Position numbers and translations under genes: made by a program
In this document: one piece after another, positions 4,775-34,415 of the stretch
How the letters are laid out: each line of letters begins with the position of its first letter
Position numbering within the stretch: position 1 is the first letter of the stretch
Assembly (NCBI GenBank): GCA_965219685.1
Contig: CBDCOH010000002.1
Location: 96,001 to 160,000, forward strand
Origin: Candidatus Spongiisociaceae bacterium
Lineage (GTDB): Bacteria; Actinomycetota; Acidimicrobiia; Spongiisociales; Spongiisociaceae
Direction: 5' to 3'
Length of the DNA stretch: 64,000 bases
Notes under the pieces: generated by a model
Told to the model about the DNA's origin: nothing
Database searches by the model: none
The model's input: the letters and a program-made list of their open reading frames with translations, nothing else

Positions 4775-5275
4775 GGTGTCTTCACGTCGCTCGCTGGTTC
4801 ACTGAAGGCTCACCCTGGTACGGCGGGAACGCAACGGCGCCCACCAGACAGCGTCCCCCAATATACGAACCCGAACTGTTCCGAGCCCGGTTCACCCTCC
4901 TGCGGCGGGCGGTCCATCTCAGCGAAGGGCACCAGAAGCCTCTGGATCGGCTGTTCGACGCTCATCCCCGGCTCCGCATTGCTTGGGACGCGCTCCAGGA
5001 GTTCTACCAGATGTACGAGGCCGACGACCTGGAGCAGGCCCAGGCCCTCGGACGGTTCGCCGACCTCTACGCGACAGGCCAGACACGAATACCGAGAAGT
5101 GGTGGACACGATCATCGCGTGGGGGAGAAGAAATCCTGGCCTACCACCGCAGCAGACGAGCAACCAACGGACCCATCGAGGGGATCAGCAATTTGCTCCA
5201 GGTCCTACGCAGAGTCGCTCACGGGTTTACCAACACCGACAACTTCGCAGCCCGAGGAGTTCTCGTAACACTCAT
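4775..5275 (+). pseudogene. ISL3 family transposase, frameshifted C-terminal fragment
   Basis: HVARWFTEG...RATNGPIEGISNLLQVLRRVAHGFTN; similar to 8528-9013 and 11158-11640. Confidence 0.85.
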
Positions 5276-5408: not shown

Positions 5409-7744
5409 AGCGTCACCTCGAGGACCACGATCAGTTCCAAGCCGGCCTTACTCGGCGGTTTGCTCGGCGCCTCGTCCAGGATGCCAGGGTGATGTCGATT
5501 CGGGCGGCGTCCCGCCATCACGGGGTGGGATGGCATCGGATCATGCGCCTGGTGAGCGCCCACTCAGAGCAAGTGGCGAAGCGTCGCCGGGCCCGGCCCG
5601 TGCGGGTGTTGTTGGTGGACGAAACGTCGATCCGGCGCCGGCATCGTTATGTGACCGTGGTTGCTTGTGGCGACTCGGGCAAGGTCCTAGCCATGAGCGA
5701 GGATCGCACGAAAGGGTCTTTGAGCAGGTTCTTCCGTGATCAGGGACCGGGCTGGTGCCGGCAGGTGGAGATAGTCGTTTCTGACGGGTCCCGCTTATAT
5801 CAGGCGGCCATCGCCCAGTACTTGCCCGACGCCCGCCACGTCTTGGACGTTTTCATGTTGCGCGGGTGCGCCATGAGGCGCTTTGTTCACGAGTGAGGGT
5901 GCGAGACCCTTGCCGTGGGCTGTCACAGCAGTCCGCTGAAGCTGGGAGCAGTCCAGGTCTTGGGGGTGCAGGACCTTGGGCGGTAAGCAGCTCGGAGGAC
6001 GCCGGGACGGGTCGGCACCGTCAGACGGTCCGGGTCCGGCAAGCAAGACGAGAAGGTGTAACAACAGTAGTGAACCAGTGTCAGAACCTCCTTAAGCGTG
6101 GAACCGGCTCGAATCTGGCGGATGTGGGCCGGGCAGCAGTGCACGTCGTCTACTACTGGCGTGGACGGCGACTCCGTAACCGGCTGCGTGCGCCGGTGGG
6201 GAGGCTTTCCGGGAAGGTCTGTGGCGTACCGGAGAGCGAGGCTGCAGGAGAAAAGCTGGGCGTCTCCCTTGTCGAGCGGAACAAAGTGAACATGGGAACC
6301 GACCCGGGGTTGTCCCTCCCGCTGCGCTGCCAGTGCGGCGGAGGGCAGGTCCACCGCCGACCGATGGCGTCGGGTCGGGACGGAGCCTCCGTAGTAGGTG
6401 CGAGGTCGGGAAAGCCGGCCACACGGGGGAAGGGAGGCAGCGGGTCAGCAGCGGCGGGATTGGAATGCCAGGAGGCCGCCGGTGAATACCGGCGTTCTGT
6501 GGCCGACGTCTGAGGAGGCGTCGGTGCGGGTACTGGAGATCCAAACTAAGCTGCATCGTTGGGCATCTGACGATCCGGGTCGCCGTTTCGGTGATCTTTA
6601 CAACCTGGTGCACGATCCGGCCACTGTCGGGGTGGCGTGGGATCGTGTCCGCAGGAACCGAGGTGCCCGCACCGGTGGAGTGGACGGCCAGACCGCCCGC
6701 TCCATCGAGGCACGACACACCGTGACGGGCTTTTTGGAACAGCTTCGAGCCGATCTCAAGGCCCGAACGTTTCAACCGTTGCCCGTGCGGGAGCGGACCA
6801 TCCCGAAACGGAGCGGCAAGCTACGCCGCCTGGGGATACCGACCGTTCGGGACCGTGTCGTGCAAGCGGCAATGAAGGTGGTGTCAGAACCCTGTCTTTG
6901 GGGCGGACTTCCAGCCGTGTTCGTATGGGTTCCGACCCAACCGCCGGGCACAGGACGCCATCGCCGACATTTCACCACCACTGGTGCACCAGCTCTTATG
7001 AGTGGGTGCTGGAAGCGGACATCAAGGCATGTTCCCGACCAGACGGCGACCACACCGCTCTCATAGAGCGGATTCGGGGTCGGGTCTCGGACAAGAAGGT
7101 CTTGAGCCTGGTTAAGACGTTCCTCAAAGCCGGTATCCTCGGAGAGGACGGCGTTGATCGGGACACCTGGGCGGGAACCACTCAAGGCGGGATACTCTCA
7201 CCGCTGCTCGCCAACATCGCCCTCTCCGTCCTCGATGATCATTTCATCGACGTGTGGGCTGGGTTTGGTAAGAACGCCCAGGCTCGAAGCTATCGACGGT
7301 CCAAGGGTTTCGCCACCTACCGGCTGGTCCGCTACGCGGACCACTTCGTCGTGTTGGTGCTCGGCACCCGTGACGACGCCGAAGAGCGACGGGCGGAGGT
7401 CGCAGCGGTGTTGTCGGAGATCGGGCTGCGTCTGAACGACGACAAGACGAGAGTCGTTCACATCGACGACGGTTTCGACTTCCTTGGGTTCCGTATCAAA
7501 CGGGACCACAAACGAGGAAGCGGGAAGGCCTATATCTATACCTACCCCTCCAAGGAGTCGGTCGCCTCGATCAACAGGAGAAGAAAAGGCCATCGGTCGC
7601 CAGACCACCAGCCAAAGCCCCAAGACACCTACTACGGCAACTCAACCCGGTACTGAGTAGAGGCTGGACCAGCTACTTCCGGCACGGGGTGTCCCCAGAC
7701 CACCCTGCGGATACCTCCGTCACTACACATGGCGGAGAGTCATC

Positions 7745-8222: not shown

Positions 8223-9064
8223 GAGTCATCACCTGGCTACGGCACAAACACCCCCGAAGCAACTGGAAACAACTGAATCGCCGATACCTCGACACCGGAT
8301 GGTGGCCATCCGACGGGAACGTGGCGCTGTTCAACCCGGCCGATCGTCAACACACCCGATACCGCTACCACAGAACACGAATCCCCACCCCCTGGACCCA
8401 CCAACCGTCAACACCAACCGACCCGCGGAGAGCCGGATGCGGTGAAAGCCGCGCGTCCGGTTCGGAGGCGCGGACCGGGGAAACCGACCGATAGAAACAT
8501 CGGCACGGCGCCCCGGTCCGACCCTACTGGTTCACCGAAGGCTTGACCCTGGTACGCCGTGAACTGCAACGCCGCCCCCCAGAGCAGCGGCCCCCAACAT
8601 ACGAACCGGACCTGTTCCGAGCCCGGTTCACTCTCCTCCGGCGGGCGGATCATCTCACAGACGGGCATCAGAAGCATCTGGATCGCCTGTTCGAAGCTCA
8701 TCCACGGCTCCGCACCGCTTGGGAAGCGCTCCAGGAGCTCTACCAGCTGTACGAAGCCGACGACCTCGACGGCGCCAACCGGGCCCTCGGACGGTTCGCC
8801 GACCTCTACGCCACAGGCCAGATCCCCGAATACCACGACATCGTGGACACCATCATCGCATGGGGAGAAGAAATCCTCGCCTACCACACCAGTCGACGAG
8901 CAACCAACGGACCCATCGAAGGCATCAACAACCTGCTCCAAGTCCTACGCCGAGTCGCTCACGGCTTCACAAACAGCAACAACTACGCAGCCCGAGGAAT
9001 CCTCGTAACATGACCCCCACACCGACCACCAGAACAGCCCAATCCCACGTTTTCGCGAAGCCTC

Positions 9065-11108: not shown

Positions 11109-12460
11109 GAGGCTTCGTGAAAACGTGGGGTTCCGGGCCTGTTTTCGGTGTGGTGGTTCATGTTACGAGGATTCCTCGGGCTGCGAAGTTGTTGGTGTTG
11201 GTGAATCCGTGAGCGACGCGGCGTAGGACTTGGAGGAGGTTGTTGATGCGTTCGATGGGTCCGTTGGTTGCTCGTCTGCTGTGGTGGTAGGCCAAGATCT
11301 CTTCCCCCCAGGCGATGATCGTGTCCACGACTTCGCTGTATTCGCGGTGTCTGGCCTGTGGCGTAAGGTCGGCGAACCGCCCGACGGCCTGGTTGGCGCC
11401 GTCGAGGTCTTCAGCTTCGTACAGCTGGTAGAGCCCTTGGAGAGCGTCCCAGCCCGTCCGGAGGCGGGGGTGAGCTTCGAACAGGCGATCCAGATGCTTC
11501 TGATGCCCGTCTGTGAGATGATCCGCCCGGCGGAGGAGGGTGAAGCGGGCTCCGATGCAGGTCTGGCTCGAACGTTGGGGCCGCTCGTCGGGAGGGCGGC
11601 GTTGCAGTTCACGGCGTACCATGGTCAAGCCTTCGGTGAACCACCTCGCCACGTGAGAACGGTCGAGGACATGGCGGGCGTCGGGGAGATACTGGGCGAT
11701 GGTCTGGGTGGTATGAGCGTGATCCGTCGGAGACGACGATCTCGACCTGGCGGCACCACCAAGCTCCTTGATCCCTGAAGAACCTGTGTCGGGGACGCTT
11801 TCGTGCGGCCCTCGATCATGGCTAGGACCTTGCCCGTGTCGCCACAGGCCACCACGGTCACATACCTGTGCCGACGCCGGATGGATGTCTCGTCCACCAG
11901 CAGCACCCGGCACGGTCGGGCGCGGCGACGCTTCGCTACCCGAGCTGCCTCGGCATCCACCAGGCCCATGATCCGATGCCATCCCACTCCGTGATGGCGG
12001 GACGCCGCCCGAATCGACATCCGCCGGGCGTCCTGGACCAGGCGGTGGGCCAACCGGCGGGTGAGGCCACCATCGAAGCGGGTGTGGACCTCGAGGTGCC
12101 GCTCCTCGCAGTTCGAACACACAAACCGGTGGCGGCGCCACACCAGGGTGGTACGCCGGCCGCTCACCTCCAAGTCCCGGACCCGCTTCGCTCGCCGGAA
12201 CCGACACCTTGAAACACTTGAACCCCACAATGCGGGCACCGCGACCAGGCCCGGGTCGATTCCACTTCCACCTCTAGGCGGTTGACAGAATCAACCACCA
12301 CTCCCCTCACGCGAACACCCGACAAGTGCAGACGAACCGACATAAGATCAGACATCGAGGCCTCCTGGCATCGGCGATTTGGTACTTCACCGATTCCAGC
12401 GGGGCCTCACCCCCTTTCCAAGGATTTCACCCCCCCCATCCCACGTTTTCGCGCAGGGCC
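11109..12460 (-). mobile_element. full-length ISL3 element, transposase frameshifted
   Basis: Inverted ends sharing gaaaacgtggg; zinc finger CPHCG...CSNC, VDETS, NGPIE in shifting frames 11158-12355; no target duplication seen. Confidence 0.9.
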
Positions 12461-12694
12461 AACTGGTTGTCGAGACTCCCCTGCATCGGTGCCGGAGCGG
12501 CGAGGGGGCCGTCCCGTTGGTGGGTCAGCGTCTTGGAACCACAACATCAGGATTTCTCCGGCGCGTTTGTGGATTCGGTTGGACGCGGCCAGCGCGGGGT
12601 TCCGCTGGACTCTTCGCGTTGGGCAGGTGCGTGACTCTCAAGGGGATGTTCTCGGTAGGACCGACCTAGTGACGTTTCGAGATGTGGGAACGCG

Positions 12695-15600
12695 TCACGC
12701 CGGCACAAGTGGTTTCTTGCGCCCGTAGCGCTCACGGATGAAGGTCTCGACATCGGCGGACGGAACTTCTCGCGTTGAGTTGTTGCGGCGTTGGTAGAGC
12801 GTTTTGGCGCCCTCCTTGTTCTTGACCCAGATGGGCCGGGAACTGACGGGCACGTCGATCCGGCAGACGTCGTGGTTGTTGACTCGGTCGATGCGGATGT
12901 CAAGGCGGTTGGCGCCGGCGTGGCCGAGGCTGTTCTCGAAGAGGGTGTCGAGCCAGTTGACGTAGCCGTCGGCGTTCGGAGGTTTGACTTGGGCGTAGTC
13001 GTCGTCGAGGCCGACCGGTTCGCCACGATCGGTGACGCCGATCAGCAGGGTCCCGCCCCGGTCGTTGAGCAATCCGGCGACTGTCTTGACGACAACCTGT
13101 TCCATCCTCTTGTCCCTGCGCCGCTCCCGCACGTTCCACCGGGCGGTCTGTTTGTACTCGACTGTTCTGGACTCGTCGTCGACAAGGAGTTCTCGGGTGG
13201 GGCAAGCCCAAGTGGCGTTCGCTCCGAAGAGCGTCTCGATGAGTTGGGCGAACAGTTCTGGGTCGGTGCGGACTTGGGCTAGGAGGTCATCGTTGACCTC
13301 CTCAGGAGTGGTCGGCACTGTCGCCACCGCCGTACCCGTGCCGGTGTCATCATCGGGTGTGTCGTAGACGCTTCCGCCATTGTCGAAATAGCTGGCGTAG
13401 ATGTGGTCGAAGATAGCGTCGACCTTTTGGTCGAAGAGTCCGGGGCCGTAGACGTCGGGCAGTTCATCGTCGAGGACGGTGCCGACTGCGACGCGAACCG
13501 CGGAGCGAGTTTGCTGGCGGCGTTTCCAGTCGAGGACGAGTTTCTCCTCGACATGGTCCAACAGCTTCTTCGCAGCGCCCTTGACTTTCTTTGCCTCGGC
13601 CTCGGTCAGCTGCGGCTCCGGCTTGGTGAGCAGGTCGAAGACGGCCAGTTCTGCCTCGGTCGCGTCTTCTCGAACGGCGCGCTGCTCTTCGTTGGTCAAC
13701 TCGTCGTTGATGGCCCTGAGCCTACGGAGGAACTCCTCGAGGTTGTGAGTGCCGGCGTTGTAGTCCTCGATGAGGCGTCGGAACCTCTCGGCCAGGTCCA
13801 TCCGGGTCGGGTTCTTTCGCACCGCCTCAACAAGCCGTTTCTTGATGTTCTTCTCGATGGCCAGCGCGGCTGTTCGCTTGTTGGCGGCGAAGTTCAAGGA
13901 GAGTTGCTCGAAGTCGATCTGGTTGAGATCGATCAACGGATCAGTCCCACCGGTGCTGCGAATGATGTACTCCTTCGCCCCGACCGACCGATCGAGCAGT
14001 TCCGACACCGAGTCCATCACCCCGCTGATGTCGGGCGAATCGGTCGCCGATGCGATCTTCGATGCGATCGAGCGAATTACAGCCACCCGGTGGGTGACCG
14101 CCATCGCCTCAGGATCAGGTAGCAGCGCCTTGAAGGTCTTTCGGACCCTGCGGGCAAGCGACACGTACCGGCGGCGGGTCTGTTCGTCAATCAGTAGCGC
14201 TTCCACGGCGGCCTTCTGCAAGGCGACGAACTCGAACCCCTGCGCTGCCTCCATGTCGTCGAGGTCGATGTCGTTGGCATCGCACAAGTCGGCTACGTCG
14301 CCCAGCGCCGCACTCAACCCTGCGATCAGGTCGTCCTTGGGCCGGATCGGCAGGTCGCGGCCCGACGCGGTGCGGTCAGCACCGTAGATGGCGAGCGCCT
14401 TCTCCAGGTTCCGGAACACACCGACGTAGTCGACGATCAGACCGTTGTCCTTGTCCGGGAACACCCGGTTGGCCCGGGCGATGGTCTGCATCAATGTGTG
14501 GTTCCGCATCGGCTTGTCGAGATACACCGTTGACGTCGACGGGGAGTCGAACCCCGTGAGCCACATCGCACACACGAACACCAACCGGAACGGATCGTCA
14601 GGGTCCTTGAACTTGGAGTTGAGGTCCTCGGTGAGCATCCGCTTGCGATGCTTGGCGATGTCGAGACCGGCAGCGGCCATCTCTGCCACTTCGTTCTGGG
14701 CCTGCGACACCACCACGGCCATGTCGGTGCTGCGCATGAACTCGATAAGGGACTCCAGGTGCGGTCTCTCCATCTCGGGGGTGTTCACCAACCGACTTTC
14801 GAGGTCGGCCAGATAGCGGACCCACTCGGCCTCCACCAGGTCGTACATCCGCACGGCCGTAGCCTTGTCGATGGCCACATACATGGCCTTTCCCCGGAAT
14901 CCCCGATTGACGAAGTGGTGGACCAGATCCTCGGCGATTTCGGCGAGCCGCCGGGGTCGCGTGATCAGCTGGTACTGCTGGGAGAATCGGCGCGCGACTG
15001 CCTTTTCCTGGGCATCGTCCAAAGCGGCCTCTTCGAGCAGGTCTTCGAGTTCCTCGTCGAAGTCTTCGTTGGTGAGCTGCAACTCTGGGATGCGGTTCTC
15101 GTAGTAGAGCGGGACGGTGGCCCCGTCAGCGATGGAGTCCCGGAAGTTGTAGATCGACACGTAGTCGCCGAACACCTGCCGGGTTCTCTCCTCCTCCCCG
15201 GCGATCAGCGGTGTGCCGGTGAAACCCAGAAACGAGGCGTTCGGCAACGAGAGTCGCATGTTGGCGGCCAGCGTGTCGTACTGTGATCGGTGGGCCTCGT
15301 CGGTGACAACCACGATGTCATCCCGTCGGGACAGGACCGGCATCGGTTGGCCCTTCTCGGGTGGGATGAACTTGTGGATCAGCGTGAACACGTACCGGTG
15401 GTCCTGGCCCAGCAACTCCCGTAGGTGGGCTGAACTCTCGGCGTGAACCTGCTGGCCGGTGGTTATCACCCCAGAGTCGACAAATTCCTCGTAGAGCTGC
15501 TCGTCGAGTTCCTTCCGATCGGTCACCAGCACGAACGTCCAATTGCCGGGCTCCTTGCGCAGCACCTTCTGGGTGAACCACAACATCGACAGTGACTTGC

Positions 15601-16507
15601 CCGACCCCTGGGTATGCCAGAACACCCCGAGCCGACCCTCACGCTCCTTCAGTTCCCGCAGAGCCTCAAGCGCATTGTTCACGCCAAGGAACTGGTGGTT
15701 CTTGGCGAGCACCTTCACCAGACCGCCCGGCCGTTCCGTGAAGGCAACGAAGTTCTCGACCAAATCCAGCAGTCGACGCCGCTCGCAGGTGCCGCGCAAG
15801 GCGGTCTCCAGCGACACCACGCCCTGCTCGCCCTCGGAGTTGATCCTCTTCCAATCGGTGAAATGCCCCCATGGAGCGAACGTCGAGCCAACGCGTGTGT
15901 CGGCTCCGTTCGAGAGCAAAACGAACGCGTTGAACCAGAACAGGTGCGGGACGGTGTCGCGGTAGTCGCGGAGGTTGCCCTCGTACGCGTCCCGGACGTT
16001 CTTGTGTGACACTTTCAGTTCGACCAAGACCAGCGGGATGCCGTTGACGAACAACACCACATCGGCCCGCCGCTTGTACATGTCGCCAACGATCCAAAAC
16101 TGCGAAACCGCCAACCAGTCGTTCGCGTCAGCGTTGTTCCAGTCCATGAACCGCACCGTGACCGTCTGGCTCTTGCCGTCAGCTCCGATCGTTTCGATCT
16201 TCGCGCCATCGCGAAGTAGTACATCGACCTCGCGGTTTGCCCGAACCCGGTCCATCGCCGACCGATCCTCGACCAACCGCTCCACCGCCGCATCCAGTGC
16301 CGCCTCAGGACGACCAGGATTCAGAACACGAAGCGACTCTCGGAGCCGGTAAACGAGCACGGGCTCGGACCGTGAGTCGCGACCTAGCGTGCCCAGCGGC
16401 CCGAGGCTCTCCTCGAACCCCAACGCCACTTTCCAACCCAACCGTGACAACAGACGGAGTGCTGGCTGCTCAACCAGTTCGTCCTCGGTCAGACCAACTG
16501 GACTCAC
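12695..16507 (-). CDS. hsdR: type I restriction subunit R with C-terminal Schlafen/AlbA_2 domain
   Basis: ADVVLFVNGIPLVLVELK nuclease, HTQGSGKS Walker A, DEAHRSQY, QTIARANR; last ~165 aa ESRTVEYK...VAGLLNDRGGTLLIGVTD. Confidence 0.95.
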   Translation of the reverse strand: MSPVGLTEDELVEQPALRLLSRLGWKVALGFEESLGPLGTLGRDSRSEPVLVYRLRESLRVLNPGRPEAALDAAVERLVEDRSAMDRVRANREVDVLLRDGAKIETIGADGKSQTVTVRFMDWNNADANDWLAVSQFWIVGDMYKRRADVVLFVNGIPLVLVELKVSHKNVRDAYEGNLRDYRDTVPHLFWFNAFVLLSNGADTRVGSTFAPWGHFTDWKRINSEGEQGVVSLETALRGTCERRRLLDLVENFVAFTERPGGLVKVLAKNHQFLGVNNALEALRELKEREGRLGVFWHTQGSGKSLSMLWFTQKVLRKEPGNWTFVLVTDRKELDEQLYEEFVDSGVITTGQQVHAESSAHLRELLGQDHRYVFTLIHKFIPPEKGQPMPVLSRRDDIVVVTDEAHRSQYDTLAANMRLSLPNASFLGFTGTPLIAGEEERTRQVFGDYVSIYNFRDSIADGATVPLYYENRIPELQLTNEDFDEELEDLLEEAALDDAQEKAVARRFSQQYQLITRPRRLAEIAEDLVHHFVNRGFRGKAMYVAIDKATAVRMYDLVEAEWVRYLADLESRLVNTPEMERPHLESLIEFMRSTDMAVVVSQAQNEVAEMAAAGLDIAKHRKRMLTEDLNSKFKDPDDPFRLVFVCAMWLTGFDSPSTSTVYLDKPMRNHTLMQTIARANRVFPDKDNGLIVDYVGVFRNLEKALAIYGADRTASGRDLPIRPKDDLIAGLSAALGDVADLCDANDIDLDDMEAAQGFEFVALQKAAVEALLIDEQTRRRYVSLARRVRKTFKALLPDPEAMAVTHRVAVIRSIASKIASATDSPDISGVMDSVSELLDRSVGAKEYIIRSTGGTDPLIDLNQIDFEQLSLNFAANKRTAALAIEKNIKKRLVEAVRKNPTRMDLAERFRRLIEDYNAGTHNLEEFLRRLRAINDELTNEEQRAVREDATEAELAVFDLLTKPEPQLTEAEAKKVKGAAKKLLDHVEEKLVLDWKRRQQTRSAVRVAVGTVLDDELPDVYGPGLFDQKVDAIFDHIYASYFDNGGSVYDTPDDDTGTGTAVATVPTTPEEVNDDLLAQVRTDPELFAQLIETLFGANATWACPTRELLVDDESRTVEYKQTARWNVRERRRDKRMEQVVVKTVAGLLNDRGGTLLIGVTDRGEPVGLDDDYAQVKPPNADGYVNWLDTLFENSLGHAGANRLDIRIDRVNNHDVCRIDVPVSSRPIWVKNKEGAKTLYQRRNNSTREVPSADVETFIRERYGRKKPLVPA

Positions 16508-17763
16508 ACCGCCTCCACCACCAGATCTATATCAAGCTCCGATACATCCAACTCCCCCGACACAAGACGAGGCAGCAGGAGGTTCCGCGCACCCCGCAGC
16601 ACCCGATTCTGTGCTGCGAGGGTCTTTCTCAGAGAATCAATTGGCCCCACAATGTCGCTGAATGCCTGTTCAACATCATGGGTGGGGTGGGGAATGCAAT
16701 AGTTCATGAGGACTCCGGTGTTTGCCCTCGGCATCTTTGTCCCGTTGGAGGTTGCGGTTGCAACACCAACGAATTCGTCACTTGACGCAACCGCTAAGGC
16801 TCGACACCGGAAGGATTCCTCTTTGGGTCTAAAGACAATCGTATCCGTCGAAGAACACCCCGAGATAGGTGCATCGACCACCTTATGAAAGTAGGGCCGA
16901 ATTTTGCCGAAGAGAATATCCCCCTCGGAGAAGATCTTTCGTCGACTTCCAACCTGCGAGGCCTCTTCCCACTCATAGAGTGTCGTGGAACGCCTTGGCA
17001 GGTGCTGAAGTCCCACTACCGGTGTTCCTTCGGATATATTGTCCGGAGACACCGTCTGTTTGATCTCCGACACGAGATCTGAGAACTTACCTGCTTTCCA
17101 ACCATCGGGGATCGGGCCAATGTCGGAGTCGATCAACTCGCTATCTTCGTGGCCCGGGAATCGGAGGTGTACGAACCACTCCCTATACAACAACCGAGCC
17201 ATCTCCTCCAGAATCTCGATCCGGCGCCGATTGTTGTCGATCAAGCCGTCGTACATCCCCAGTTCACGTGCCATCCTCCGTTGGTCTTCAAGAGCGGGCA
17301 ATGGGATCTCCACTAGAGACAGTATCTCTTGGTTAAGTGATGCCATCGTCGCTCCGAACGAGCAGTAGTTATGCATCCAGCGTCGATGCCATTCAGTACG
17401 AAGTGTGAACGATACGAACGTTGGATCAATAACGTTCTTATCCAGTCGCAAACGGATACAGTCGGACCCTTGGATCCAGCCTGTTTCTCGTGACGTAATG
17501 AGAGCGTGACGATCTACAGCTCCCTTTCGACCGAAAACTATGTCACCCTCCTGAAGCCGGTGTCGTGCTAGGCGCTCGACATGTTCTGCTGGGAGAAACT
17601 CCAATCCATGAGTCCGGATCTCACCGTAACCAACGTTACGAACGTTGATTACGGGTGTGCCATCATGCGTATACTGATCCGCCGATAGCTGCGTCCCAAA
17701 CGGACCCGTTGTTAGCTCGGCAACCCCTCGGGATTGGAGATCCCCGATCCGAACTGTCTTCAT
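16504..17763 (-). CDS. hsdS: type I R-M specificity subunit
   Basis: Two TRDs joined by IPLPALEDQRR...LLYREWFV...IPDGW; C-terminal RNLLLPRLVSGELDV; lower GC. Confidence 0.95.
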   Translation of the reverse strand: MKTVRIGDLQSRGVAELTTGPFGTQLSADQYTHDGTPVINVRNVGYGEIRTHGLEFLPAEHVERLARHRLQEGDIVFGRKGAVDRHALITSRETGWIQGSDCIRLRLDKNVIDPTFVSFTLRTEWHRRWMHNYCSFGATMASLNQEILSLVEIPLPALEDQRRMARELGMYDGLIDNNRRRIEILEEMARLLYREWFVHLRFPGHEDSELIDSDIGPIPDGWKAGKFSDLVSEIKQTVSPDNISEGTPVVGLQHLPRRSTTLYEWEEASQVGSRRKIFSEGDILFGKIRPYFHKVVDAPISGCSSTDTIVFRPKEESFRCRALAVASSDEFVGVATATSNGTKMPRANTGVLMNYCIPHPTHDVEQAFSDIVGPIDSLRKTLAAQNRVLRGARNLLLPRLVSGELDVSELDIDLVVEAV

Positions 17764-19334
17764 TCGACGGACTGCATCTGGCCCCGGATCCTGTCGGACA
17801 GGAGAGAGGCTTCGTCAGTGAGTTTCGCAAATGTGCCAGCAAGTTGTGTCATCGCTACGACAAATTCGCCATGGTCGACAAGGGACCTGACTACATCTAC
17901 ATATCGGCCTGGATTGAGACTCCATCCCTGCACTTCGAGCTCTTCGATACTTGTGACAGCACACAGGCCAGGCACATCTGTATAAGTGTCGGCGGGAAAT
18001 CTCTTGCTGAGCAACTCCTCACTTCCTGCCTCGAATTCGGGCTTCTCGCCGCGCCACAACCGTACGATGTTGGCGAGGAACTCAATTTGCTGTGGTGTCC
18101 AGTCACGATGGGCTCGGTCGATCTGGTTGTAGATCTCACGAGCGTCGATAAAGAGCACTTGGTCAGCCCGGTCAGTGCGTTTCTTGCCTCGGTCGAGGAA
18201 CCACAGCGTCACGGGCAACGTGACGGTGTAAAACATGTTCGTGGTGGCAGCCAAGATCACATCAACGGTCCGGTCTTCAATGAGCTTACGGCGGATGTGC
18301 AGTTCACTTCCTCTGGCGTCGGATGCCGAGTTCGCCATGACGAATCCGGCACGGCCGCTCTTGTTGAGCGCGGAGTAGAATGTCTGGATCCAGATGTAGT
18401 TGCCGTTGTCAGCCTTCGGCAGTCCGAACGGGAACCGGGAATCGTCCTCGAGCTTGGTCCTATCAATCTTTTTGACATTGAACGGCGGGTTGGCCATGAC
18501 GAAGTCGAACTTGCCGCCTGAATCATGGAGATCCTCGTAGTAGGTGTTGCCTTCTCGAATGTCCCCGCCGAGGCCATGGACGGATAGGTTCATCTTTGCG
18601 AGCCGGACGGTGTCGCCGGTCTTCTCCTGACCGTAGATCGAGAGTTCCTGGCTAGGGTCGTGACGGTGACGTTCGACGAAGTGGGCGGACTGTACGAACA
18701 TCCCGCCCGACCCGCAAGCGGGGTCATAGATCTTTCCGCGGAATGGTTCGAGGATCTCGACAATGAGCCGGACGATCGAAGTCGGTGTGAAGAACTCGCC
18801 GCCCTGCCGACCCTCCGACAGGGCGAACTTGCCGAGGAAATACTCGTAGATCAGCCCGAACCCGTCACCTTCGATCACCTCCGGCAGTCCCCGCAGTAGC
18901 CGCAGGAGTTCTCCGAGGATGTTGTCGGGAACACGGGAGTAGTCCCCTGGCAGAACACCCTTGAGGTCGGGGTTGTGCTTCTCGATGCCGGTCATGGCAC
19001 GGTTGATGGACTTCCCGATGTCGGCGCCCTCGGGAAGGTTGAGGAGCGTCTCGAACCGCGATTCGTCCGGCAGATACAGGGCACCAATGGCCTTGTAGTC
19101 ATCGGGCCCGGTCGGACGCCGATCAGATCCCGGGCCCACTACCTCGTCGGCCTGCGCGAATCGATCGTCGGCGTACCGAAGAAAGATGAGCCCCAACACC
19201 GGCGAGGCATACTCCGATGCCTTCAGCCCCGAGTTGGCTCGTAACTGGTCCGCCGTCTCCCAGAGCGTGCTCTGTAGTTCACCGAGGTCCGTCGCCACCC
19301 CTGCTCTTCCTGTTGCCCCTCCATTGTCTCGCAA
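17760..19334 (-). CDS. hsdM: type I R-M methyltransferase (m6A); GTG at 19298 is an alternative start
   Basis: LWETADQLRANS, GEFFTP, IYDPACGSGGMF, MANPPF. Confidence 0.95.
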   Translation of the reverse strand: MRDNGGATGRAGVATDLGELQSTLWETADQLRANSGLKASEYASPVLGLIFLRYADDRFAQADEVVGPGSDRRPTGPDDYKAIGALYLPDESRFETLLNLPEGADIGKSINRAMTGIEKHNPDLKGVLPGDYSRVPDNILGELLRLLRGLPEVIEGDGFGLIYEYFLGKFALSEGRQGGEFFTPTSIVRLIVEILEPFRGKIYDPACGSGGMFVQSAHFVERHRHDPSQELSIYGQEKTGDTVRLAKMNLSVHGLGGDIREGNTYYEDLHDSGGKFDFVMANPPFNVKKIDRTKLEDDSRFPFGLPKADNGNYIWIQTFYSALNKSGRAGFVMANSASDARGSELHIRRKLIEDRTVDVILAATTNMFYTVTLPVTLWFLDRGKKRTDRADQVLFIDAREIYNQIDRAHRDWTPQQIEFLANIVRLWRGEKPEFEAGSEELLSKRFPADTYTDVPGLCAVTSIEELEVQGWSLNPGRYVDVVRSLVDHGEFVVAMTQLAGTFAKLTDEASLLSDRIRGQMQSVE

Positions 19335-19884
19335 ATGTAGGTGTCGACCAAAGGCGACCGATCCACTTCTTGAACCGGCGGAAGCCGAAGCGGTTGGCTA
19401 TCTCGTTCTGTAGGTTCGTGATCGCCTGCTTACTTGTCTGGCCGGGGCCCCATCCTTTCAGGTTCATCTCTGAGGGTGTAGTGATCGGGGCGTTCTCCCA
19501 TGCCTGGCTGATGTAGGGGCCGACGTCGCGGTTGATGATGGCTCGGGTTGTGGCGTAGGTGTTTGCGAGGTCAGGATGCTCGGTGACGATCCATGCTTGA
19601 TGGTAGGCAAGGCGTTCTTGGAGGTCGTGGCCGCGGTTAGCGAGAGCGGTGAGGGTGGATGGGTTGTTGTCGGCGCGACGGCGGACGCGGTAGGGGAACT
19701 CGGTCCATGCGACGAGGGTTTGGACTGCTTCCGCGTAGCGTTCGCGGCGACGGTTGGTGGCTTCGTTTAGGCGGGCGTAGGCCATGGTTGCAATCGAGCC
19801 GATGATGGCACCGACAGGTGCCGCGAGGATCGCCCATAGCTGGCTGTCGGTTGAAGAAGCTGCGATGGTGGTCACGGTGAACAT
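19279..19884 (-). CDS. single N-terminal TM helical protein; candidate CBASS effector or accessory
   Basis: TM LWAILAAPVGAIIGSIATMAY; start overlaps the E2 stop and the end overlaps the hsdM start. Confidence 0.75.
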   Translation of the reverse strand: MFTVTTIAASSTDSQLWAILAAPVGAIIGSIATMAYARLNEATNRRRERYAEAVQTLVAWTEFPYRVRRRADNNPSTLTALANRGHDLQERLAYHQAWIVTEHPDLANTYATTRAIINRDVGPYISQAWENAPITTPSEMNLKGWGPGQTSKQAITNLQNEIANRFGFRRFKKWIGRLWSTPTFARQWRGNRKSRGGDGPR

Positions 19885-20435
19885 CAGGCTACCCGGAGGC
19901 TAGGGGTTCGGATGGGATGCGGTCGACCGTCGGGCCGGTGCCCGTGGGGGGCGTCCTCGACCGGCCAGGAGCCGTGACGGCGCCAGTATTCTTCACACCA
20001 CAGGTGACGTTGCACTATGCGTAGGTAGGCATCTATCCCGTCGGACCAGTGCCATCGTAGGTAGCCGGGATCTCGAGGGTATTCGACGCACAGTGACCCG
20101 AGGAGTTCCTCCCACGGTATCGGTGTTGACTGTGACCATTCCAGAACTTGCCTGATGGAGAGGCGCGGGTAGCGGTGCAGCCAGGTACGTTCATCGCTCC
20201 TCGCGGGGATAGCGTGTAAGTCGCCGTTGGATCGCACGGCGATACGGACGCGCTCGGCGGGGTAGCCGGGCAGTCCCCGGGGCGGGGGAGGCTCGAACTG
20301 CACGTCGAAGATGGTCAATCGCTTGTTGTGTCTCACGAGTCTGATGTCCATACCGTCGACAACGTCTGACTGGTTGAGCCACCGGATACAGGCTTGAGGG
20401 TTCCTCCGGACGTGGTTCAGCCCGCCTGGTTTCAT
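19884..20435 (-). CDS. prokaryotic E2 (ubiquitin-conjugating-like) protein of short type II CBASS
   Basis: HRYP...GSLCVEYPRDP...W...G and C-terminal WPVEDAPHG; ATGA overlap with the cyclase stop. Confidence 0.7.
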   Translation of the reverse strand: MKPGGLNHVRRNPQACIRWLNQSDVVDGMDIRLVRHNKRLTIFDVQFEPPPPRGLPGYPAERVRIAVRSNGDLHAIPARSDERTWLHRYPRLSIRQVLEWSQSTPIPWEELLGSLCVEYPRDPGYLRWHWSDGIDAYLRIVQRHLWCEEYWRRHGSWPVEDAPHGHRPDGRPHPIRTPSLRVA

Positions 20436-21394
20436 TTTGGTCTCCACGCCCGGGTGGTCGGAGTCCGGCGCGCGGTGGTAGCCACACCGGCGTAGAGACC
20501 TTGGAGGAAGCCCTGCTCGTCAGCCGGCGGACGGGGGAAAGGCTCACCGAATATGTCGGCCCAGATGTGAGCTGCTTCTGTCTCCGCTCCCGACGCCGCG
20601 AGCTGTTGCGCTGTGCTTGCTTGGGTGGCGAGACGCTGCATCCCCGCCCTGGCGGTGGCTCTGTCTGCGGCGGACAGACGATCGGATATCCAGTCCCAGC
20701 CGGTGGGATCGGTGTAACGGCCACCGAGGAGTTCGGCACCCTTCGCCAGCGCTGCCGCAACAGCGTCGGCATGCTCCTGCCGGGATGCAATCGCGTGGTA
20801 TGTGAAAGCCTCGACATGAAGGCCGGGGAGCACATCGGCAAGTTTGGCATGGCCCACGGCCTGTTTGACCATGCGCACCTGACGTACGAACCGGCCGTCA
20901 CATACTTGGTTCCGGGCGGCGATCGTATCGATCAGGATGTAGGTGTTGGACAACTCCCAAGCATCGTCTTCGGTGTCGGCGATGTAGATCCATCCAGAGC
21001 CGTCCTCAGGGTTGAATGCCGGCACGGCGTCGAAAGTAAACCCCTCGGCGGGGAGAGTGATCGCAAGGGCATGCTTCTTCACCTCGAAGCTGGCACCGGG
21101 GAGGTGGGGTGCGAGGGCAGCTTTGATAAGCGACATGGCTCGTCGTGAGCCGCCGGGTTTCTTGAGAGAATCGGTCAGGTCGTCGACCAACTCGACTACC
21201 TTGTCGATGTCTTTGAGTTTGGGACCCAGCATTGTGTGGCGGGCGAAGCTGCCCTGCAGGCGGGTCCGTTTAGCGACCCCGGCCTTGACGAGCAGGTCCC
21301 CGAGGCGATTGTGCGTCTCCTGGGCTCTGAGGCGTTCTGCCGGGTCCAGTTTCAGGTTGTTGTCGAGAGCGTCGAAGCGCTTCTTCAGGTTCAT
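20432..21394 (-). CDS. CD-NTase (cGAS/DncV-like, SMODS) nucleotide cyclase, 320 aa
   Basis: QGSFARHT...KDID...FDAVPA, RQVRMVK, DPTG, WADIFGEPFP; RBS aagga before ATG 21394. Confidence 0.88.
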   Translation of the reverse strand: MNLKKRFDALDNNLKLDPAERLRAQETHNRLGDLLVKAGVAKRTRLQGSFARHTMLGPKLKDIDKVVELVDDLTDSLKKPGGSRRAMSLIKAALAPHLPGASFEVKKHALAITLPAEGFTFDAVPAFNPEDGSGWIYIADTEDDAWELSNTYILIDTIAARNQVCDGRFVRQVRMVKQAVGHAKLADVLPGLHVEAFTYHAIASRQEHADAVAAALAKGAELLGGRYTDPTGWDWISDRLSAADRATARAGMQRLATQASTAQQLAASGAETEAAHIWADIFGEPFPRPPADEQGFLQGLYAGVATTARRTPTTRAWRPK

Positions 21395-21485
21395 CGGCTT
21401 TTCCTTTCGTAGGTCGTGCGGTAGTTGGCGTGATCGGGTAGTCCCTGGGGATCGAGGTGGCTGCCCGTCGAGGGTCTCAACCCCG

Positions 21486-21519
21486 GACGGGACCCGGTGC
21501 ATTCACCGGGACTCCCGTC
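21486..21519 (-). promoter_or_regulatory. GC-rich hairpin between the peptide ORF and the CD-NTase
   Basis: gacggga-cccggtg / catt / caccggg-ac-tcccgtc: 14-bp stem with a 2-nt bulge, no U tract. Confidence 0.55.
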
Positions 21520-21533
21520 GGGATGTCGAGTGG

Positions 21534-21650
21534 TTACCTCTTCTTCTTGGGTGACTTCACCCTCTCGGACACGGTGGTCCGAGGGTGTCGCCTCGCCGTA
21601 GAGCGCTTGACGAAACGGCCTGTAACGGCCGATCGGTGTCGTTTTGCCAT
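21534..21650 (-). CDS. 38-aa highly basic peptide MAKRHRSAVTGRFVKRSTARRHPRTTVSERVKSPKKKR
   Basis: Perfect SD aaggaggtg upstream of ATG 21650; TAA at 21534-21536; below the ORF-track size cutoff. Confidence 0.8.
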   Translation of the reverse strand: MAKRHRSAVTGRFVKRSTARRHPRTTVSERVKSPKKKR

Positions 21651-21959
21651 CTTTCACCTCCTTCCATTTGAGTCAAGGTGCCCCGAGTCCAAGAGCACAC
21701 CGGCTGCTACCTGAGTATCTGGGATGCGCTGGCGGTGTCTCGTGGAGCCTTGAGGCTCGCTCTGTGGATGAGTCGAATGACTCGGCTTTGTCCCAGTGTC
21801 CGAGAATCTGCTAGTGCTTGACAATCCTTCAATCCCCCTAACTACCTCAAGCCTCTGCCTAGTCCCCACCAACATCCGCCGCTCGCTAGAGGCCACGGCA
21901 GCAGGAGCTTGAAGTCTGGAGTCTGATTACTTGAATTATACACGACTACGCCTAGATTC

Positions 21960-23120
21960 GTGTTTCACAGGGCTGGAATCGTTGCACATGTGGCAACGAC
22001 TGAATATGCTCCGATTACCGCCGACCGGGGAGGGGAGGGCACCCGCGTGGGCCAGAGTTCTGACGAACGCCGTGGCGACTTCGCACCACGGCGGCTCCGG
22101 ATGGCGCGCGACTTTGCCGATGTCTCACAGCTAACCCTCAGCCAAGCCGCCGGTCTATCCGTTGCATCGATCAGCCTCTACGAGCAGGGCGGGACAATCC
22201 CCAGCGACAAGACCCTGGCCTTGTTCGCCGACCACCTCGACATCGAGCCCGAATTCTTCTACTCGTCAACCACCAGCGCTGACACGCCAGCCTTCTTCCG
22301 AAGCCTCCGAACCACCAAAGCCGTCGACCGGCGACGCGCCCGACACAAGATCGAAATCGTCTACGAGTTAGTCAGGGCGCTGGAGACCGAAGTCAGGTTC
22401 CCCGACCCCGACGTACCCGAGCATCCCGTAGCCGCAAGCCAGGATCGAGGACCCGAGGAAGCAGCGCGGCGGACTAGGCACTGTTGGAACGTACCCCCAG
22501 GACCAGTCGACAACATGGTCCGATCCGTGGAACGCCACGGTGTCGTAGTCGCACAACCCGAAGAAGAAAACACCCACATCGACGCCTACTCGGTCAAGTT
22601 CCCGGACCGTCCGATCATCGTCATGTCCCTTGCCAAAGGGAAACACGACCGGTGCCGCTTCGATGTCGCCCACGAACTAGGCCACCTTGTAATGCACGAC
22701 CCCACCCAGGCCACAACCCGACCCGTGGAACAACAAGCCCACAAGTTCGCAGCCGAATTCCTAATGCCCGCGCGAGACATCCGACTCGAACTCGAGATGG
22801 CAGATACGCTCGGCGCGCTTCTCCGTCTCAAACAGAAGTGGCGCGTGTCCCTCGCAGCACTCATCCGGCGCCGCTACGACCTCGACATCATCGACAAGAC
22901 CCGTTACACGAAGTACATGAAAGCCATATCGGCAAGGGGGTGGCGCCGCAACGAACCAGTCGACCTCGGCCCACCCGAACAACCCATACTCCTCAGAAAG
23001 GCAATGCAACTAGCAGGCCTCAACGAATACGACCTCTCCCAACGCACTGGGCTTACGATCAGCCTCATACGGAACGTTCTCAACACCAGCATCGATACCA
23101 GACCGCAAGTACATATCTAG
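21960..23120 (+). CDS. XRE HTH - ImmA/IrrE zinc metallopeptidase fusion regulator (start uncertain)
   Basis: RLRMARDF...SQLTLS...SISLYEQG HTH; RFDVAHELGHLVMH, EQQAHKFAAEFLMP. Confidence 0.92.
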   Translation: MFHRAGIVAHVATTEYAPITADRGGEGTRVGQSSDERRGDFAPRRLRMARDFADVSQLTLSQAAGLSVASISLYEQGGTIPSDKTLALFADHLDIEPEFFYSSTTSADTPAFFRSLRTTKAVDRRRARHKIEIVYELVRALETEVRFPDPDVPEHPVAASQDRGPEEAARRTRHCWNVPPGPVDNMVRSVERHGVVVAQPEEENTHIDAYSVKFPDRPIIVMSLAKGKHDRCRFDVAHELGHLVMHDPTQATTRPVEQQAHKFAAEFLMPARDIRLELEMADTLGALLRLKQKWRVSLAALIRRRYDLDIIDKTRYTKYMKAISARGWRRNEPVDLGPPEQPILLRKAMQLAGLNEYDLSQRTGLTISLIRNVLNTSIDTRPQVHI

Positions 23121-23454
23121 CGGCCCCAGGCTGTGCCCATCCACACCGCACGACGACCCCCTCCGAGACTCAAGGTATCATCGCCATGGAAGGTAATCCG
23201 TTCTCTCGATCTCAAATACGCGATCAGCCCTCCATACAGGCTAACCTACATGCCCGAGTTCGATCGTTTTCCGTGAAGAGCCCCCATTCACTCTCAAGAT
23301 GCACTGGGCAAGCCATTACTAGCGATCTTGTTACCAGAGATCGATTGTATCCAGAGGTCATTGGTGAATCGTTCCCTCGTCTAGGGATCCCGTGTGTGGG
23401 GTTAGTCCTCCCAATGACCTACGTCACCTCAGCTCAGACTGAGAAGAAGGGCCC

Positions 23455-24366
23455 CTAAACATCGAACGTGCCCACTGTTAGCCACTCATCACCAGAATCA
23501 TCCACGGAGAGCCCAACAGTCTGAAGCCTGCCTACTATCCGCTTCCTCGCCTGTGGGGAGTCATTCAAATAGACCAAATGGCGACCAGCGATATCCGATA
23601 GGATCTTCGTTCCAGGTGTTGCAACTATAAGAGTCCTGCTGGGAGCAAGTGCCATGGCCATACCAGCCTCATAAATGACGTTTTGTCGTGGCTGTCCGGC
23701 CTCAACCAGTTCAGGGTCTTCAGCATCTTCAGCTAGGGCTGGATCCAGTCTAACGAAATCGTCTGGCGTCGCGAGAACCACGATACCATGCGCCTCCTCA
23801 AGCCCCGCCAAGAGTACATCACCTATATACGGATTAGGTTCACCAGTCAACCTGACAGCCTGTTCCCACTCAATCACCCTTAGGTCAAGAGATCTTAGGA
23901 AACTCTTCATGGCATCTGTTATGGTCCTATTCCTCCCATGTACTAGGAATACTGACCGTCCATCACCGGGGCCAGTCGGAACTGACACACGAGCTACTCC
24001 TACACCCTTCGTACTGGACCGTGTGTCTGAGTCCCAGCCGGGAGGACCTTTAATGTATCTGTCAGTTACGTCGGTTGCCTGACCGACTGCTCTCCACAAG
24101 TATGTAGGACCTCCAAGGCTAAGCACACCAGACGATCGGTCCTTGGCCTTCAGGCCCGGAATATAGTCTCGGGCAGATCTATCGGACGTTGATACCTCGA
24201 TACGCCCAAGTTTGGCAAGCTTGATTGTTCGCCCATTGACTATGATAGGCCTGCCCAGACGGTAGGGCTCCAGAAACTGTTCCTGTAGTTGGTCCAGGCT
24301 CATATCAATCTTGACTTCGCCGTGACGACTGCCAGACACTGAGAGTCTCACATGGTAAAGCTCCAT
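23455..24366 (-). CDS. TIR-domain protein (CAP12/Pycsar-type TIR) with unrecognised N-terminal domain
   Basis: VFLVHGRN, VVLATPDD, PRQNVIYEAG (catalytic Glu), LSDIAG. Confidence 0.85.
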   Translation of the reverse strand: MELYHVRLSVSGSRHGEVKIDMSLDQLQEQFLEPYRLGRPIIVNGRTIKLAKLGRIEVSTSDRSARDYIPGLKAKDRSSGVLSLGGPTYLWRAVGQATDVTDRYIKGPPGWDSDTRSSTKGVGVARVSVPTGPGDGRSVFLVHGRNRTITDAMKSFLRSLDLRVIEWEQAVRLTGEPNPYIGDVLLAGLEEAHGIVVLATPDDFVRLDPALAEDAEDPELVEAGQPRQNVIYEAGMAMALAPSRTLIVATPGTKILSDIAGRHLVYLNDSPQARKRIVGRLQTVGLSVDDSGDEWLTVGTFDV

Positions 24367-24389
24367 CCGCTCTACTCTAGTGTGGATTG

Positions 24390-25667
24390 CCTGAACTGGG
24401 CGGCAACTTCACCGATCGTAGCCCCACCAGATGGTCCTCGGAGCAGACGCCTCCGCTGTGGATCCTGGCACTCGCGATCGGGCAAGGTAGCCTCGCCGAG
24501 GTAGCCAACATGATCCGGGCCGCAGCCGAGAGACTCCGGGCGGCGTGCCGCCGGTACTGGTCGATGTCCACCCAGACGGTGTCGTCGTCGATGGCCCCAA
24601 GGGCTTGTCTGCTGATACGGTCACGGCGCAGTTTCGTGGCCAGTATGTAGTCGAACCCGGCTTCGGCGACCACCGAGACGTTGGCCGCCGGGATCAGACC
24701 CCGGTCGGCGACCACACAGATACGACCAGGCGCGAACCTCGCCGCCAGATCGCCCAACACGGCTGACAGGGTGGTGGCGTCGCTGGTGTTGCCCGAGAAC
24801 ACCCGATGGGCGATCGGGATCCCATCAGAGGTGCATAGGAGGCCGATCACTATCTGGGGCCGTTCAGCACGATGGTCCCGCGAGTGCCCGAACGCCCGCG
24901 ATGGGAAACGTCCAGAGGACCGGGTCGAACCCTCGAAATACGTGGAAGTCAGGTCGTAGCACACCAGCCGCAGGTCCAGGTTCGTCAAGTCGCACAATCG
25001 CGAATACAGATGCGTCTCCGTCTCGTCTTCGACGGCGGCGACCGCGTCCAGGGCCCGGTAGTACTGATCAAGTGACGGAGCCGACCAGCCCTCGGGCATG
25101 ACCACATCCGCCCCGGCCCACTCGGCCAGTTGCCGCTTCGAGCACGGCGCCACCAACCGGTTCGCCACCACTTGCGAACACCGCATCCTCCAGAGCCTTC
25201 GCGCCCCCCGCGGCGCCTACCTGAGCGAACCACTCGCCGAGGACCAGCCGCTGCCACACCGCCCACACCGCGGCTACCGCCCCCAACCGAGGCGCCCCCT
25301 CAGCTTCCAACGACCCGACATCGACCCCGTTCGCGGCGTAGTTGACGCTCCAGGGCGGCGACGATGCGTTCCAGCTGGCCGGACTCGCGCAAAGCGGTTA
25401 CTTCCCCCAGCCGCCAAAAGAGTCCGGTGACCGACCTTCGACCCTTGGCGGAATGACTCCACCAAAGACAAATACTCGTACACCTTGTCGCCCCTGCGAC
25501 GGCGAGTCGTCTTCACGAACACACCCAGAACAATACCACTAACAGCCCACTCCATCAACCATATGTCGCCCCTACAAATCCTCACCCAGAGGATGACCTA
25601 CACCACGAAACCCCAGGTCAGAGAACCGACCACCCCCACCAAACCCCTCCAACCCGCCAAACTCGGG
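24390..25667 (-). mobile_element. IS1634 family element, internally deleted and frameshifted
   Basis: YEYLSLVESFR, YDLTSTYFEG, FGHSRDHR, VVADRG; imperfect inverted ends cctgaactgggcgg / cccgagtttggcgg. Confidence 0.85.
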
Positions 25668-34174: not shown

Positions 34175-34375
34175 GGTCCACCACTTCTGCCGGTGTTTCT
34201 GGGAGGGTGTGGTGGTTGAGCTGGCTGGCCGGTGAGTACTGATGGCACCCGGAACGTTGATTCCTAGAGCTAGAGCGTACCCCGGCCGGTTCGCGAGGGT
34301 GCTTGTAGCGCTCATGGGGTGTCGTGCCGTAGAGCACTGATCCATTAGGTCGCCGCCGGGTGTCCCTCGAAGCTC
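34175..34375 (+). ncRNA. predicted IS110 bridge RNA
   Basis: 5' hairpin; target guides gatggcacc (34241-34249) and agctag (34268-34273); donor guides tggggtgtc (34315-34323) and ccattag (34342-34348); ends approximate. Confidence 0.8.
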
Positions 34376-34415
34376 TCTGACAATGTTTTGGGACTGTTTC
34401 TGAAGGAGGCAGCAG

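Follow-up and report, generated by a model that had tools for sequence, protein, structure and literature searches.

We analysed a stretch of 64,000 nucleotides (nt), here called the window, from the genome of Candidatus Spongiisociaceae bacterium of the class Acidimicrobiia (assembly GCA_965219685.1, contig CBDCOH010000002.1, positions 96,001 to 160,000). The subject is a cluster of defence genes at positions 12,695 to 23,120 of the window. Our reading, to which we assign a probability of about 0.78, is that two autonomous and already known defence systems, an antiphage signalling system based on cyclic oligonucleotides (CBASS) and a type I restriction-modification (R-M) system, have been welded by a local rearrangement into one gene chain, in a defence island rich in insertion sequence (IS) elements. 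We regard them as two autonomous systems placed side by side because other genomes have the one or the other on its own. Both the CBASS subtype and the R-M type are known; the new elements are their join at the exact start codon of hsdM and the fusion of HsdR to a Schlafen-like domain.

A chain of six genes on one strand

The features of the locus, including a divergent helix-turn-helix (HTH) gene, a single-pass transmembrane (1TM) effector gene and the cyclase, a CD-NTase, are as follows, in amino acids (aa) where lengths are given.

12695-16507, minus strand: HsdR of 1270 aa that carries an AlbA_2/Schlafen domain at the C-terminus
12764-13174, minus strand: AlbA_2/Schlafen-like domain of HsdR, residues 1112-1248 (Pfam E 1.6e-13)
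16504-17763, minus strand: HsdS specificity subunit (Pfam Methylase_S; PADLOC Specificity_I E 2.8e-76)
17760-19298 (GTG) or 19334 (TTG), minus strand: HsdM type I methyltransferase (Pfam N6_Mtase E 6.9e-82 and HsdM_N; PADLOC MTase_I E 1.9e-200)
19279-19298, minus strand: putative recombination joint of the 1TM gene and hsdM, a 20-nt overlap between the 1TM stop TGA (19279-19281) and the hsdM start GTG (19298)
19279-19884, minus strand: TM protein, CBASS 1TM effector, 201 aa, the last codons of which enter hsdM
19884-20435 (ATG) or 20447 (GTG), minus strand: E2-only Cap2-like protein, 183 aa from the ATG at 20435
20432-21394 (ATG, the likely start), minus strand: CD-NTase, the CBASS cyclase; the longest open reading frame (ORF) extends to 21502
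21534-21650, minus strand: basic ORF of 38 aa that has a GGAGG ribosome-binding site and lies between regulator and cyclase
21960-23120, plus strand: HTH_3 and Peptidase_M78 fusion, a probable repressor/protease, divergent from the cyclase (Pfam, PADLOC)

The ORF table and the junction sequences confirm the six overlapping minus-strand genes reported in the first-pass annotation of this DNA, all of which are intact and chained head to tail, abutting or overlapping. The cyclase and E2 genes meet in an ATGA (20432-20435), the E2 and TM genes in a TGATG (19882-19886), hsdM and hsdS in another ATGA (17760-17763), and hsdS and hsdR in a GTGA (16504-16507). The TM gene and hsdM overlap by 20 nt when the hsdM start is taken from the comparison within the genus, versus 56 nt when the longest ORF is used. 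For neighbouring genes read in the same direction, overlaps of 1-4 nt are ordinary within operons and statistically unremarkable. Co-transcription of the CBASS and R-M genes is plausible. The domain calls of that annotation (SMODS cyclase, E2, single-TM protein, HsdM, HsdS, HsdR, AlbA_2 and HTH-M78) also agree with the Pfam and PADLOC matches.

The cyclase, E2 and 1TM genes form a complete E2-CBASS

The cyclase matches the Pfam family SMODS from residue 37 onwards (E 2.2e-10) and the PADLOC Cyclase model (E 2.9e-29), and its sequence also matches solved CD-NTase structures (6p8u_A, E 1.6e-10). In an alignment with 20 relatives, the residues G84-S85, D98, D100 and D158 (ORF numbering) are invariant and correspond to the GS...DxD...D nucleotidyltransferase site. 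The cyclases of loci L002-L031 and of the window (20432-20480) end in T-R-A-W-(R/A)-P, and R316 and W318 are invariant in the alignment. This terminal motif may be an alternative handle for the E2 protein.

The product of the second gene matches the PADLOC E2 model (E 1.5e-11), and the match is confined to the C-terminal 55 residues. An alignment of 23 sequences shows that H87 and L115-C116 are invariant, the latter including a cysteine that follows an HxY/N-P motif. Searches with the E2 profile against the sequences of solved structures returned nothing meaningful, and those with the C-terminus of HsdR returned nothing at all, so fold searches were needed for both. The best-matching PDB chain for the AlphaFold model of the E2 protein (pLDDT 86.9) is 8yjy_B, the E2 of the CdnG-E2 complex from Serratia marcescens (E 2.4e-3, prob 1.00, TM 0.52/0.60); Cap2 (7to3_A), UBE2W and eukaryotic E2 enzymes come after it. 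As the first-pass annotation held, no E1 or JAB domain was identified by Pfam or PADLOC in the eight proteins scanned.

The same annotation saw no canonical CBASS effector, which is wrong: the CBASS does have an effector, since the TM protein matches the PADLOC model Effector 1TM (PDLC00666) with an E-value of 1.4e-23. The protein contains one hydrophobic segment (residues 15-37) and belongs to a family with 148 database matches and conserved motifs. 1TM is a named class of CBASS effectors, and the combination of a cyclase, an E2-only protein and an effector without E1 and JAB is called "type II short" or E2-CBASS, for which PMC12948482 reports 616 genomes. Judged by their sequences, the cyclase, E2 and TM genes constitute a complete E2-CBASS (type II short), effector included. 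A blastn search of the triplet against a plasmid collection gave nothing beyond 106 nt matched at 74% in two Rhodococcus plasmids.

A type I R-M module with a Schlafen-like domain in HsdR

The genes hsdM, hsdS and hsdR encode a type I R-M system, with N6_Mtase and HsdM_N domains in the first protein, Methylase_S in the second, and an HSDR_N nuclease, an SF2 motor and a C-terminal domain in the third. The Pfam matches in HsdR are HSDR_N, SWI2_SNF2, T1R_D3-like, T1RH-like_C and SLFN_AlbA_2 (residues 1112-1248), and the PADLOC match is REase_I (E 1.5e-168). A model of the last 186 residues (pLDDT 84.2) gave 24 fold matches in the PDB at E<=0.001, among them the AlbA_2 protein 3lmm, the SAMD9 DNA-binding/tRNase domain (7ksp, 9o0d) and SLFN11/13/14/12/5. 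No cyclic-nucleotide sensor domain was seen on HsdR, either with Pfam or in the fold search of the C-terminal model.

In animals, Schlafen and SAMD9 domains serve as antiviral effectors that cut tRNA. A 2026 preprint extends this role to bacteria, and the Schlafen nuclease motif is given as E(x)4(D/E)xK in preprint 10.64898/2026.05.29.728809. The residues E1112-x4-E1117-x-K1119 of HsdR, which are invariant in 12 sequences, fit this motif, which is intact. The domain may confer a second, RNA-targeting function on HsdR, to judge by its family.

Residues 1040-1270 of HsdR, used as a query, matched 131 proteins. Among the matches listed, 120 of 120 combine T1RH-like_C with AlbA_2, and most of the best 120 of the 131 hold the full set of HsdR domains. 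Those that have a name are called plain "HsdR" and come from Acidimicrobiales, Actinomycetota or Candidatus Poriferisodalis. The hsdM-hsdS-hsdR module with a C-terminal AlbA_2/Schlafen domain is thus widespread in the Acidimicrobiia and related Actinomycetota, and the domain is an inherited trait of this HsdR lineage, independent of CBASS. Full-text literature searches did not return a description of an HsdR-Schlafen fusion. We consider it the most interesting piece of the locus and a lead on how restriction and abortive infection may be joined in one protein. A decayed relative of hsdR-AlbA_2 is located at 949-2302 of locus L058 (G068:C24), where an internal deletion has joined residues 1-220 to approximately 1032-1261, with one in-frame TGA.

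The two modules are separate in other genomes

By the first-pass annotation's own yardstick, its layered system would be refuted if homologous cyclase-E2-TM triplets were rarely adjacent to type I R-M genes. To examine the CBASS side, we scanned one genome per species with two patterns, which identified 32 loci in other species with a relative of the 1TM gene, and inspected flanks of up to 10 kb on either side. The cyclase, E2 and 1TM genes occur in the same order in 26 of the 32 loci, a few of which are visibly degraded, while three of the others contain E2 and 1TM alone and three contain 1TM alone. No match to HsdM, HsdS or HsdR at E<=1e-5 was obtained in any of the 32 loci, 26 of which have a downstream flank of at least 2.6 kb. 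The downstream neighbours are heterogeneous, with no Pfam family present in more than three of the 114 ORFs within 4 kb, and other restriction enzymes there are Type ISP (one ORF) and DUF3427/ResIII (two ORFs).

On the R-M side, the HsdR-AlbA_2 fusion is present in 6 of 300 further sampled genomes of the class. Five loci from other species are informative, in that each contains a complete hsdM-hsdS-hsdR set, in this order, with 1.7-10.7 kb of upstream sequence; three other fetched loci are cut by contig ends or have a deleted hsdR. Upstream of the five, no match to the cyclase, E2, 1TM or RmrA was found. Two genomes of the same genus (G001 and G006) carry orthologous HsdR-AlbA_2 genes in R-M modules that are 82-89% identical to the one in the window, and neither contains a 1TM match anywhere in its genome. 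Adjacency was thus seen in 0 of the 32 triplet loci and 0 of the 5 R-M loci, which by that yardstick refutes the layered system.

The joint between the 1TM gene and hsdM

Comparison of the window with locus L051 of the same-genus genome G006 places the border between the modules at a single position. The blastn matches cover 12669-17243 and 17897-19298, ending exactly at the GTG of hsdM, and the alignment shows perfect identity from this GTG and unrelated sequence upstream. We take GTG 19298 as the start of hsdM because the identity to the same-genus locus begins there and none is seen upstream. The 1TM ORF has no stop codon of its own before hsdM and runs 20 nt into it. The resulting C-terminal tail of the 1TM protein is missing in most relatives and present in a metagenomic protein that is 92% identical; two further metagenomic 1TM relatives are 79% and 78% identical. 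These features suggest that 19279-19298 is a recombination joint.

The fused form is not an assembly artefact, since a contig from another study bridges the joint. This contig, which is 10,672 nt long, spans 18364-21401 without gaps at ~90.6% identity, and its sequence is unlike that of the window beyond 21401, just upstream of the cyclase start. A second contig of 568 nt covers 19197-19764 (the bridging contigs are X6 record 21 and X5 record 12), and another contig from run X5 matches up to 19298 and then diverges, representing an R-M-only form. The fusion is therefore real and present in at least two related lineages, and it coexists in nature with the unfused R-M module. It illustrates cleanly, in nature, how a defence island can be assembled: a CBASS cassette came to sit precisely at the first codon of a restriction operon and displaced what lies upstream in the same-genus relative, and a related strain has kept the arrangement.

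Since the CBASS cassette lies right at the first codon of hsdM, and what precedes hsdM in the relative is missing here, transcription of the R-M genes probably comes from the CBASS promoter region. It is possible, but in our view unlikely, that the two modules are adjacent and independently transcribed, with hsdMSR driven mainly from a promoter that the 1TM gene contains in its 3' part and the overlap being without regulatory meaning. This would agree with the autonomy of the R-M module elsewhere and with the Shine-Dalgarno-like GGAAGAG that hsdM retains before GTG 19298. We also infer that an R-M system needs a steady supply of methylase, to which a repressed CBASS promoter would be ill-matched. 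What speaks against it is the absence from the window of the sequence located upstream of hsdM in G006, as well as the lack of promoter-like sites: a sigma-70-like scan of 12300-23600 gave 0 sites versus 2.7 expected from shuffles, with a model that is unsuited to an actinobacterium of 60% G+C. The 13 terminator-like sites in the same scan, versus 8.5 +/- 3.1 expected, are likewise uninformative in such a genome.

The probable divergent regulator and the intergenic region

The gene at 21960-23120 encodes HTH_3 and Peptidase_M78 domains (Pfam), with an HELGH motif in the translation. Its PADLOC scores are 2.4e-78 for RmrA, over nearly the full model, 3.1e-16 for capP and 8.2e-4 for capH, and its NCBIfam match is to the spr1629 repressor/antitoxin, under the cut-off of the model. 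In the study by Lau et al. (10.1101/2022.04.27.489752), capH and capP lie upstream of the CBASS core genes and opposite to them in strand, and 15 fused cases are described. A homolog with 37% identity is found at the same position in one related CBASS locus (L014). From its domains and its position, we consider with moderate confidence that the protein is a probable repressor/protease of the divergent promoter region. The first-pass annotation called it an XRE-ImmA switch. A divergent HTH-Zn-peptidase gene in this place has a published precedent in CapH/CapP, fusions included; the best PADLOC label is RmrA.

RmrA is described as the Zn-peptidase antitoxin of RosmerTA, and the gene might accordingly serve something other than CBASS, either as a RosmerTA-like antitoxin or as a remnant of an immunity switch from a prophage or an integrative and conjugative element, together with the divergent 38-aa phage-type gene. 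We judge this doubtful. The near-complete RmrA match and the spr1629 label would fit such an origin, as would the fact that the family of the neighbouring 38-aa ORF is common on viral contigs and that the match to the contig from the other study ends at 21401, short of the regulator gene. Yet PADLOC identified no match to RmrT or another toxin among the 18 window proteins scanned, there is no co-directional gene beside the regulator, and only 4 of 80 viral loci with the 38-aa gene show even an HTH-only match to it. The position and strand of the gene, moreover, follow the capH/capP pattern.

The 38-aa ORF itself has no Pfam or NCBIfam name. It is very basic and belongs to a family with the motif RSAxTGRFV...HPxTTV and 220 library relatives at E<=0.001, many of which have two copies of the motif, and a relative is encoded in 90 of 124 candidate stretches, the family being frequent on viral contigs. 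In 31 related CBASS loci and two R-M loci, no credible match to it was found, just arginine-rich noise. The nearby 80-aa ORF (21654-21896) has no family match in Pfam or PADLOC. A search for operators, as inverted repeats in 21380-22060, yielded only short and imperfect ones, and we assign none of them as an operator.

A model for the locus

Taken together, we propose that the type I R-M system would act as a first-line barrier that methylates self DNA and restricts unmodified DNA. Upon infection, the CD-NTase would make a cyclic-nucleotide signal, with the E2-only Cap2-like protein regulating the cyclase via its C-terminus, as published for SmCdnG-SmE2. The signal would then activate the single-pass membrane 1TM effector and lead to cell death or arrest, that is, to abortive infection. 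The HTH-Zn-peptidase, which resembles a CapH-CapP fusion and belongs to the RmrA family, would probably repress the promoter region that it faces until it is cleaved.

Several observations weigh against this reading. A promoter within the 3' part of the 1TM gene is possible, and a scan with two patterns in one genome per species may miss divergent relatives of the 1TM gene. The fused form has been kept at ~10% nucleotide divergence in the other sample, which fits selection for linkage and not only accident. The fold match of the E2 protein is modest (E 2.4e-3, TM 0.52-0.60). The top PADLOC label of the regulator is RmrA, the RosmerTA antitoxin, rather than CapH/CapP, and Peptidase_M78 was identified in only 3 of the 44 upstream ORFs scanned in related loci (the nearest one to three per locus, out of 79). 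The cyclase also departs from the published E2-CBASS norm: it is short (~320 aa), its top PDB sequence matches are 6p8u/6p82 and cAAG synthases, none of which is named CdnG, and its C-terminus is the conserved TRAW(R/A)P instead of a glycine. According to PMC12948482, the majority pattern is a long cyclase of clade G that has an E2-binding motif at its C-terminus and a glycine linkage site, but clade G is not a strict requirement, because it accounts for only 73.65% of the E2-CBASS cyclases.

The idea advanced in the first-pass annotation, that the locus is one integrated and undescribed layered system in which the TM protein, HsdR's Schlafen domain or both are switched on by cyclase signalling or E2-mediated conjugation, so that restriction and CBASS are interdependent, is highly improbable: the tight chain with no intergenic gap at the CBASS/R-M border, the recurrence of the fused form at ~90% identity and the intact nuclease motif are in its favour, but the triplet is self-contained in 26 of 32 loci, all 32 of which lack type I R-M genes, and comes with a recognised effector, the R-M module stands alone in G001 and G006 as in the five loci of other species, HsdR shows no cyclic-nucleotide sensor domain, and the border looks like a recombination joint. 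What stands of that interpretation is the set of genes and domains, their tight chaining and the precedent for a divergent regulator, whereas the missing effector and the layered system do not.

For HsdR-Schlafen, a more speculative possibility, which we hold to be rather improbable, is a restriction enzyme with a built-in second defence. If something, such as an anti-restriction protein, stopped the type I complex from translocating or cleaving, its SLFN/SAMD9-like nuclease at the HsdR C-terminus would cleave tRNA or other RNA, so that infection is aborted much as by a PrrC built into HsdR. In the present lineage, the enzyme would in addition have come under the damage- or infection-responsive HTH-peptidase switch of the E2-CBASS, giving a three-layer operon kept by selection through ~10% divergence.

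The surrounding island

Beyond the regulator, a minus-strand gene at 23455-24366 encodes a TIR-domain protein (Pfam CAP12/Pycsar effector TIR, E 3.6e-23; PADLOC candidate PDC-S35), and a 269-aa ORF (24377-25186, minus strand) is located 10 nt upstream of it; the two may be a separate pair of defence genes. We considered the TIR protein as an extra CBASS effector and rejected it, as it lies beyond the oppositely oriented regulator and has no tblastn match in the 32 related CBASS loci. The 269-aa ORF has no tblastn match in these loci either. A further defence candidate in the same island is an ApeA-like protein at 29793-31178 (plus strand), which has an ApeA domain at the N-terminus along with a HEPN domain (PADLOC PDC-S58, E 1.2e-24).

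On the other side, an ORF of 356 aa for an ISL3-family transposase (11158-12228, minus strand) is located ~470 nt downstream of the hsdR stop codon and possibly marks the border of the R-M module. A reverse-transcriptase ORF (6637-7656, plus strand) is followed by an Rfam match to a group II intron at 8428-8527 on the same strand (47.8 bits, gathering score 40), and the two together are probably a group II intron. ARAGORN calls a tRNA-Arg(TCG) of 96 nt, which is unusually long, at 5466-5561 (plus strand); the call is doubtful because Rfam reports no tRNA there at the gathering threshold.

The genomes of the same genus are very rich in IS elements and repeats. The segments ~34165-35660 (~1.5 kb, with a 406-aa ORF), ~4780-5270 (~0.5 kb) and ~1019-1129 (~110 nt) of the window are repeated elements, each of which is found many times over in G002, G005 and G006, all of the same genus. 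A comparison of the flanks with four genomes of the genus, aimed at the borders of the island, revealed no simple synteny, as the flanks are full of multi-copy repeats. At the far end, an ORF of at least 2765 aa (55705-63999, plus strand) runs off the window.

Comparison with known systems

The closest known relative of the CBASS half is the E2-CBASS of Serratia marcescens (SmCdnG-SmE2), in which a CD-NTase also precedes an E2-only protein and an effector, E1 and JAB being absent. The two differ in that the cyclase described here is shorter (~320 aa) and ends in TRAW(R/A)P, whereas SmCdnG is described as having a glycine terminus, and in that the effector is a 1TM protein. The CBASS of M. abscessus (PMC12359967) is a patatin/E1-E2 system and belongs to another family.

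The regulator is similar to CapH/CapP (10.1101/2022.04.27.489752) in combining an HTH domain with a Zn-metallopeptidase (PF06114) upstream of the CBASS core on the opposite strand, and fusions of the two are reported there. It differs in scoring far higher as RmrA and in that the operon it would control includes hsdMSR. It resembles RosmerTA (RmrT/RmrA) in that the RmrA models are matched by the HTH-M78 protein over nearly their whole length, but RosmerTA calls for an adjacent toxin, and no RmrT-like one adjoins the gene among the 18 window proteins scanned with PADLOC.

Composite operons that combine several defences at one locus under one regulator are described for DarTG2 inside a type I R-M system under RptR and for the CBASS-CRISPR island of Myxococcus xanthus. 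The partner systems and regulators are others than those in the window, and a CBASS joined directly onto hsdM is not among the cases found in these sources.

For the R-M half, the known parallel is PrrC in the type IC EcoprrI locus, the guardian of an R-M system, in which an RNA-nuclease-type module is tied to type I R-M and which could serve as a model for what the Schlafen domain does in HsdR. PrrC differs in being encoded by a separate gene and in having another fold, whereas the domain in the window, the activity of which is predicted, is fused to the C-terminus of HsdR. This domain shares its fold and its E(x)4(D/E)xK motif with the Schlafen/SAMD9 nucleases (SLFN-pAgo, SLFN11/13/14 and the SAMD9 tRNase domain), but instead of being accompanied by a GHKL ATPase or an Argonaute partner, it is part of a type I restriction subunit.

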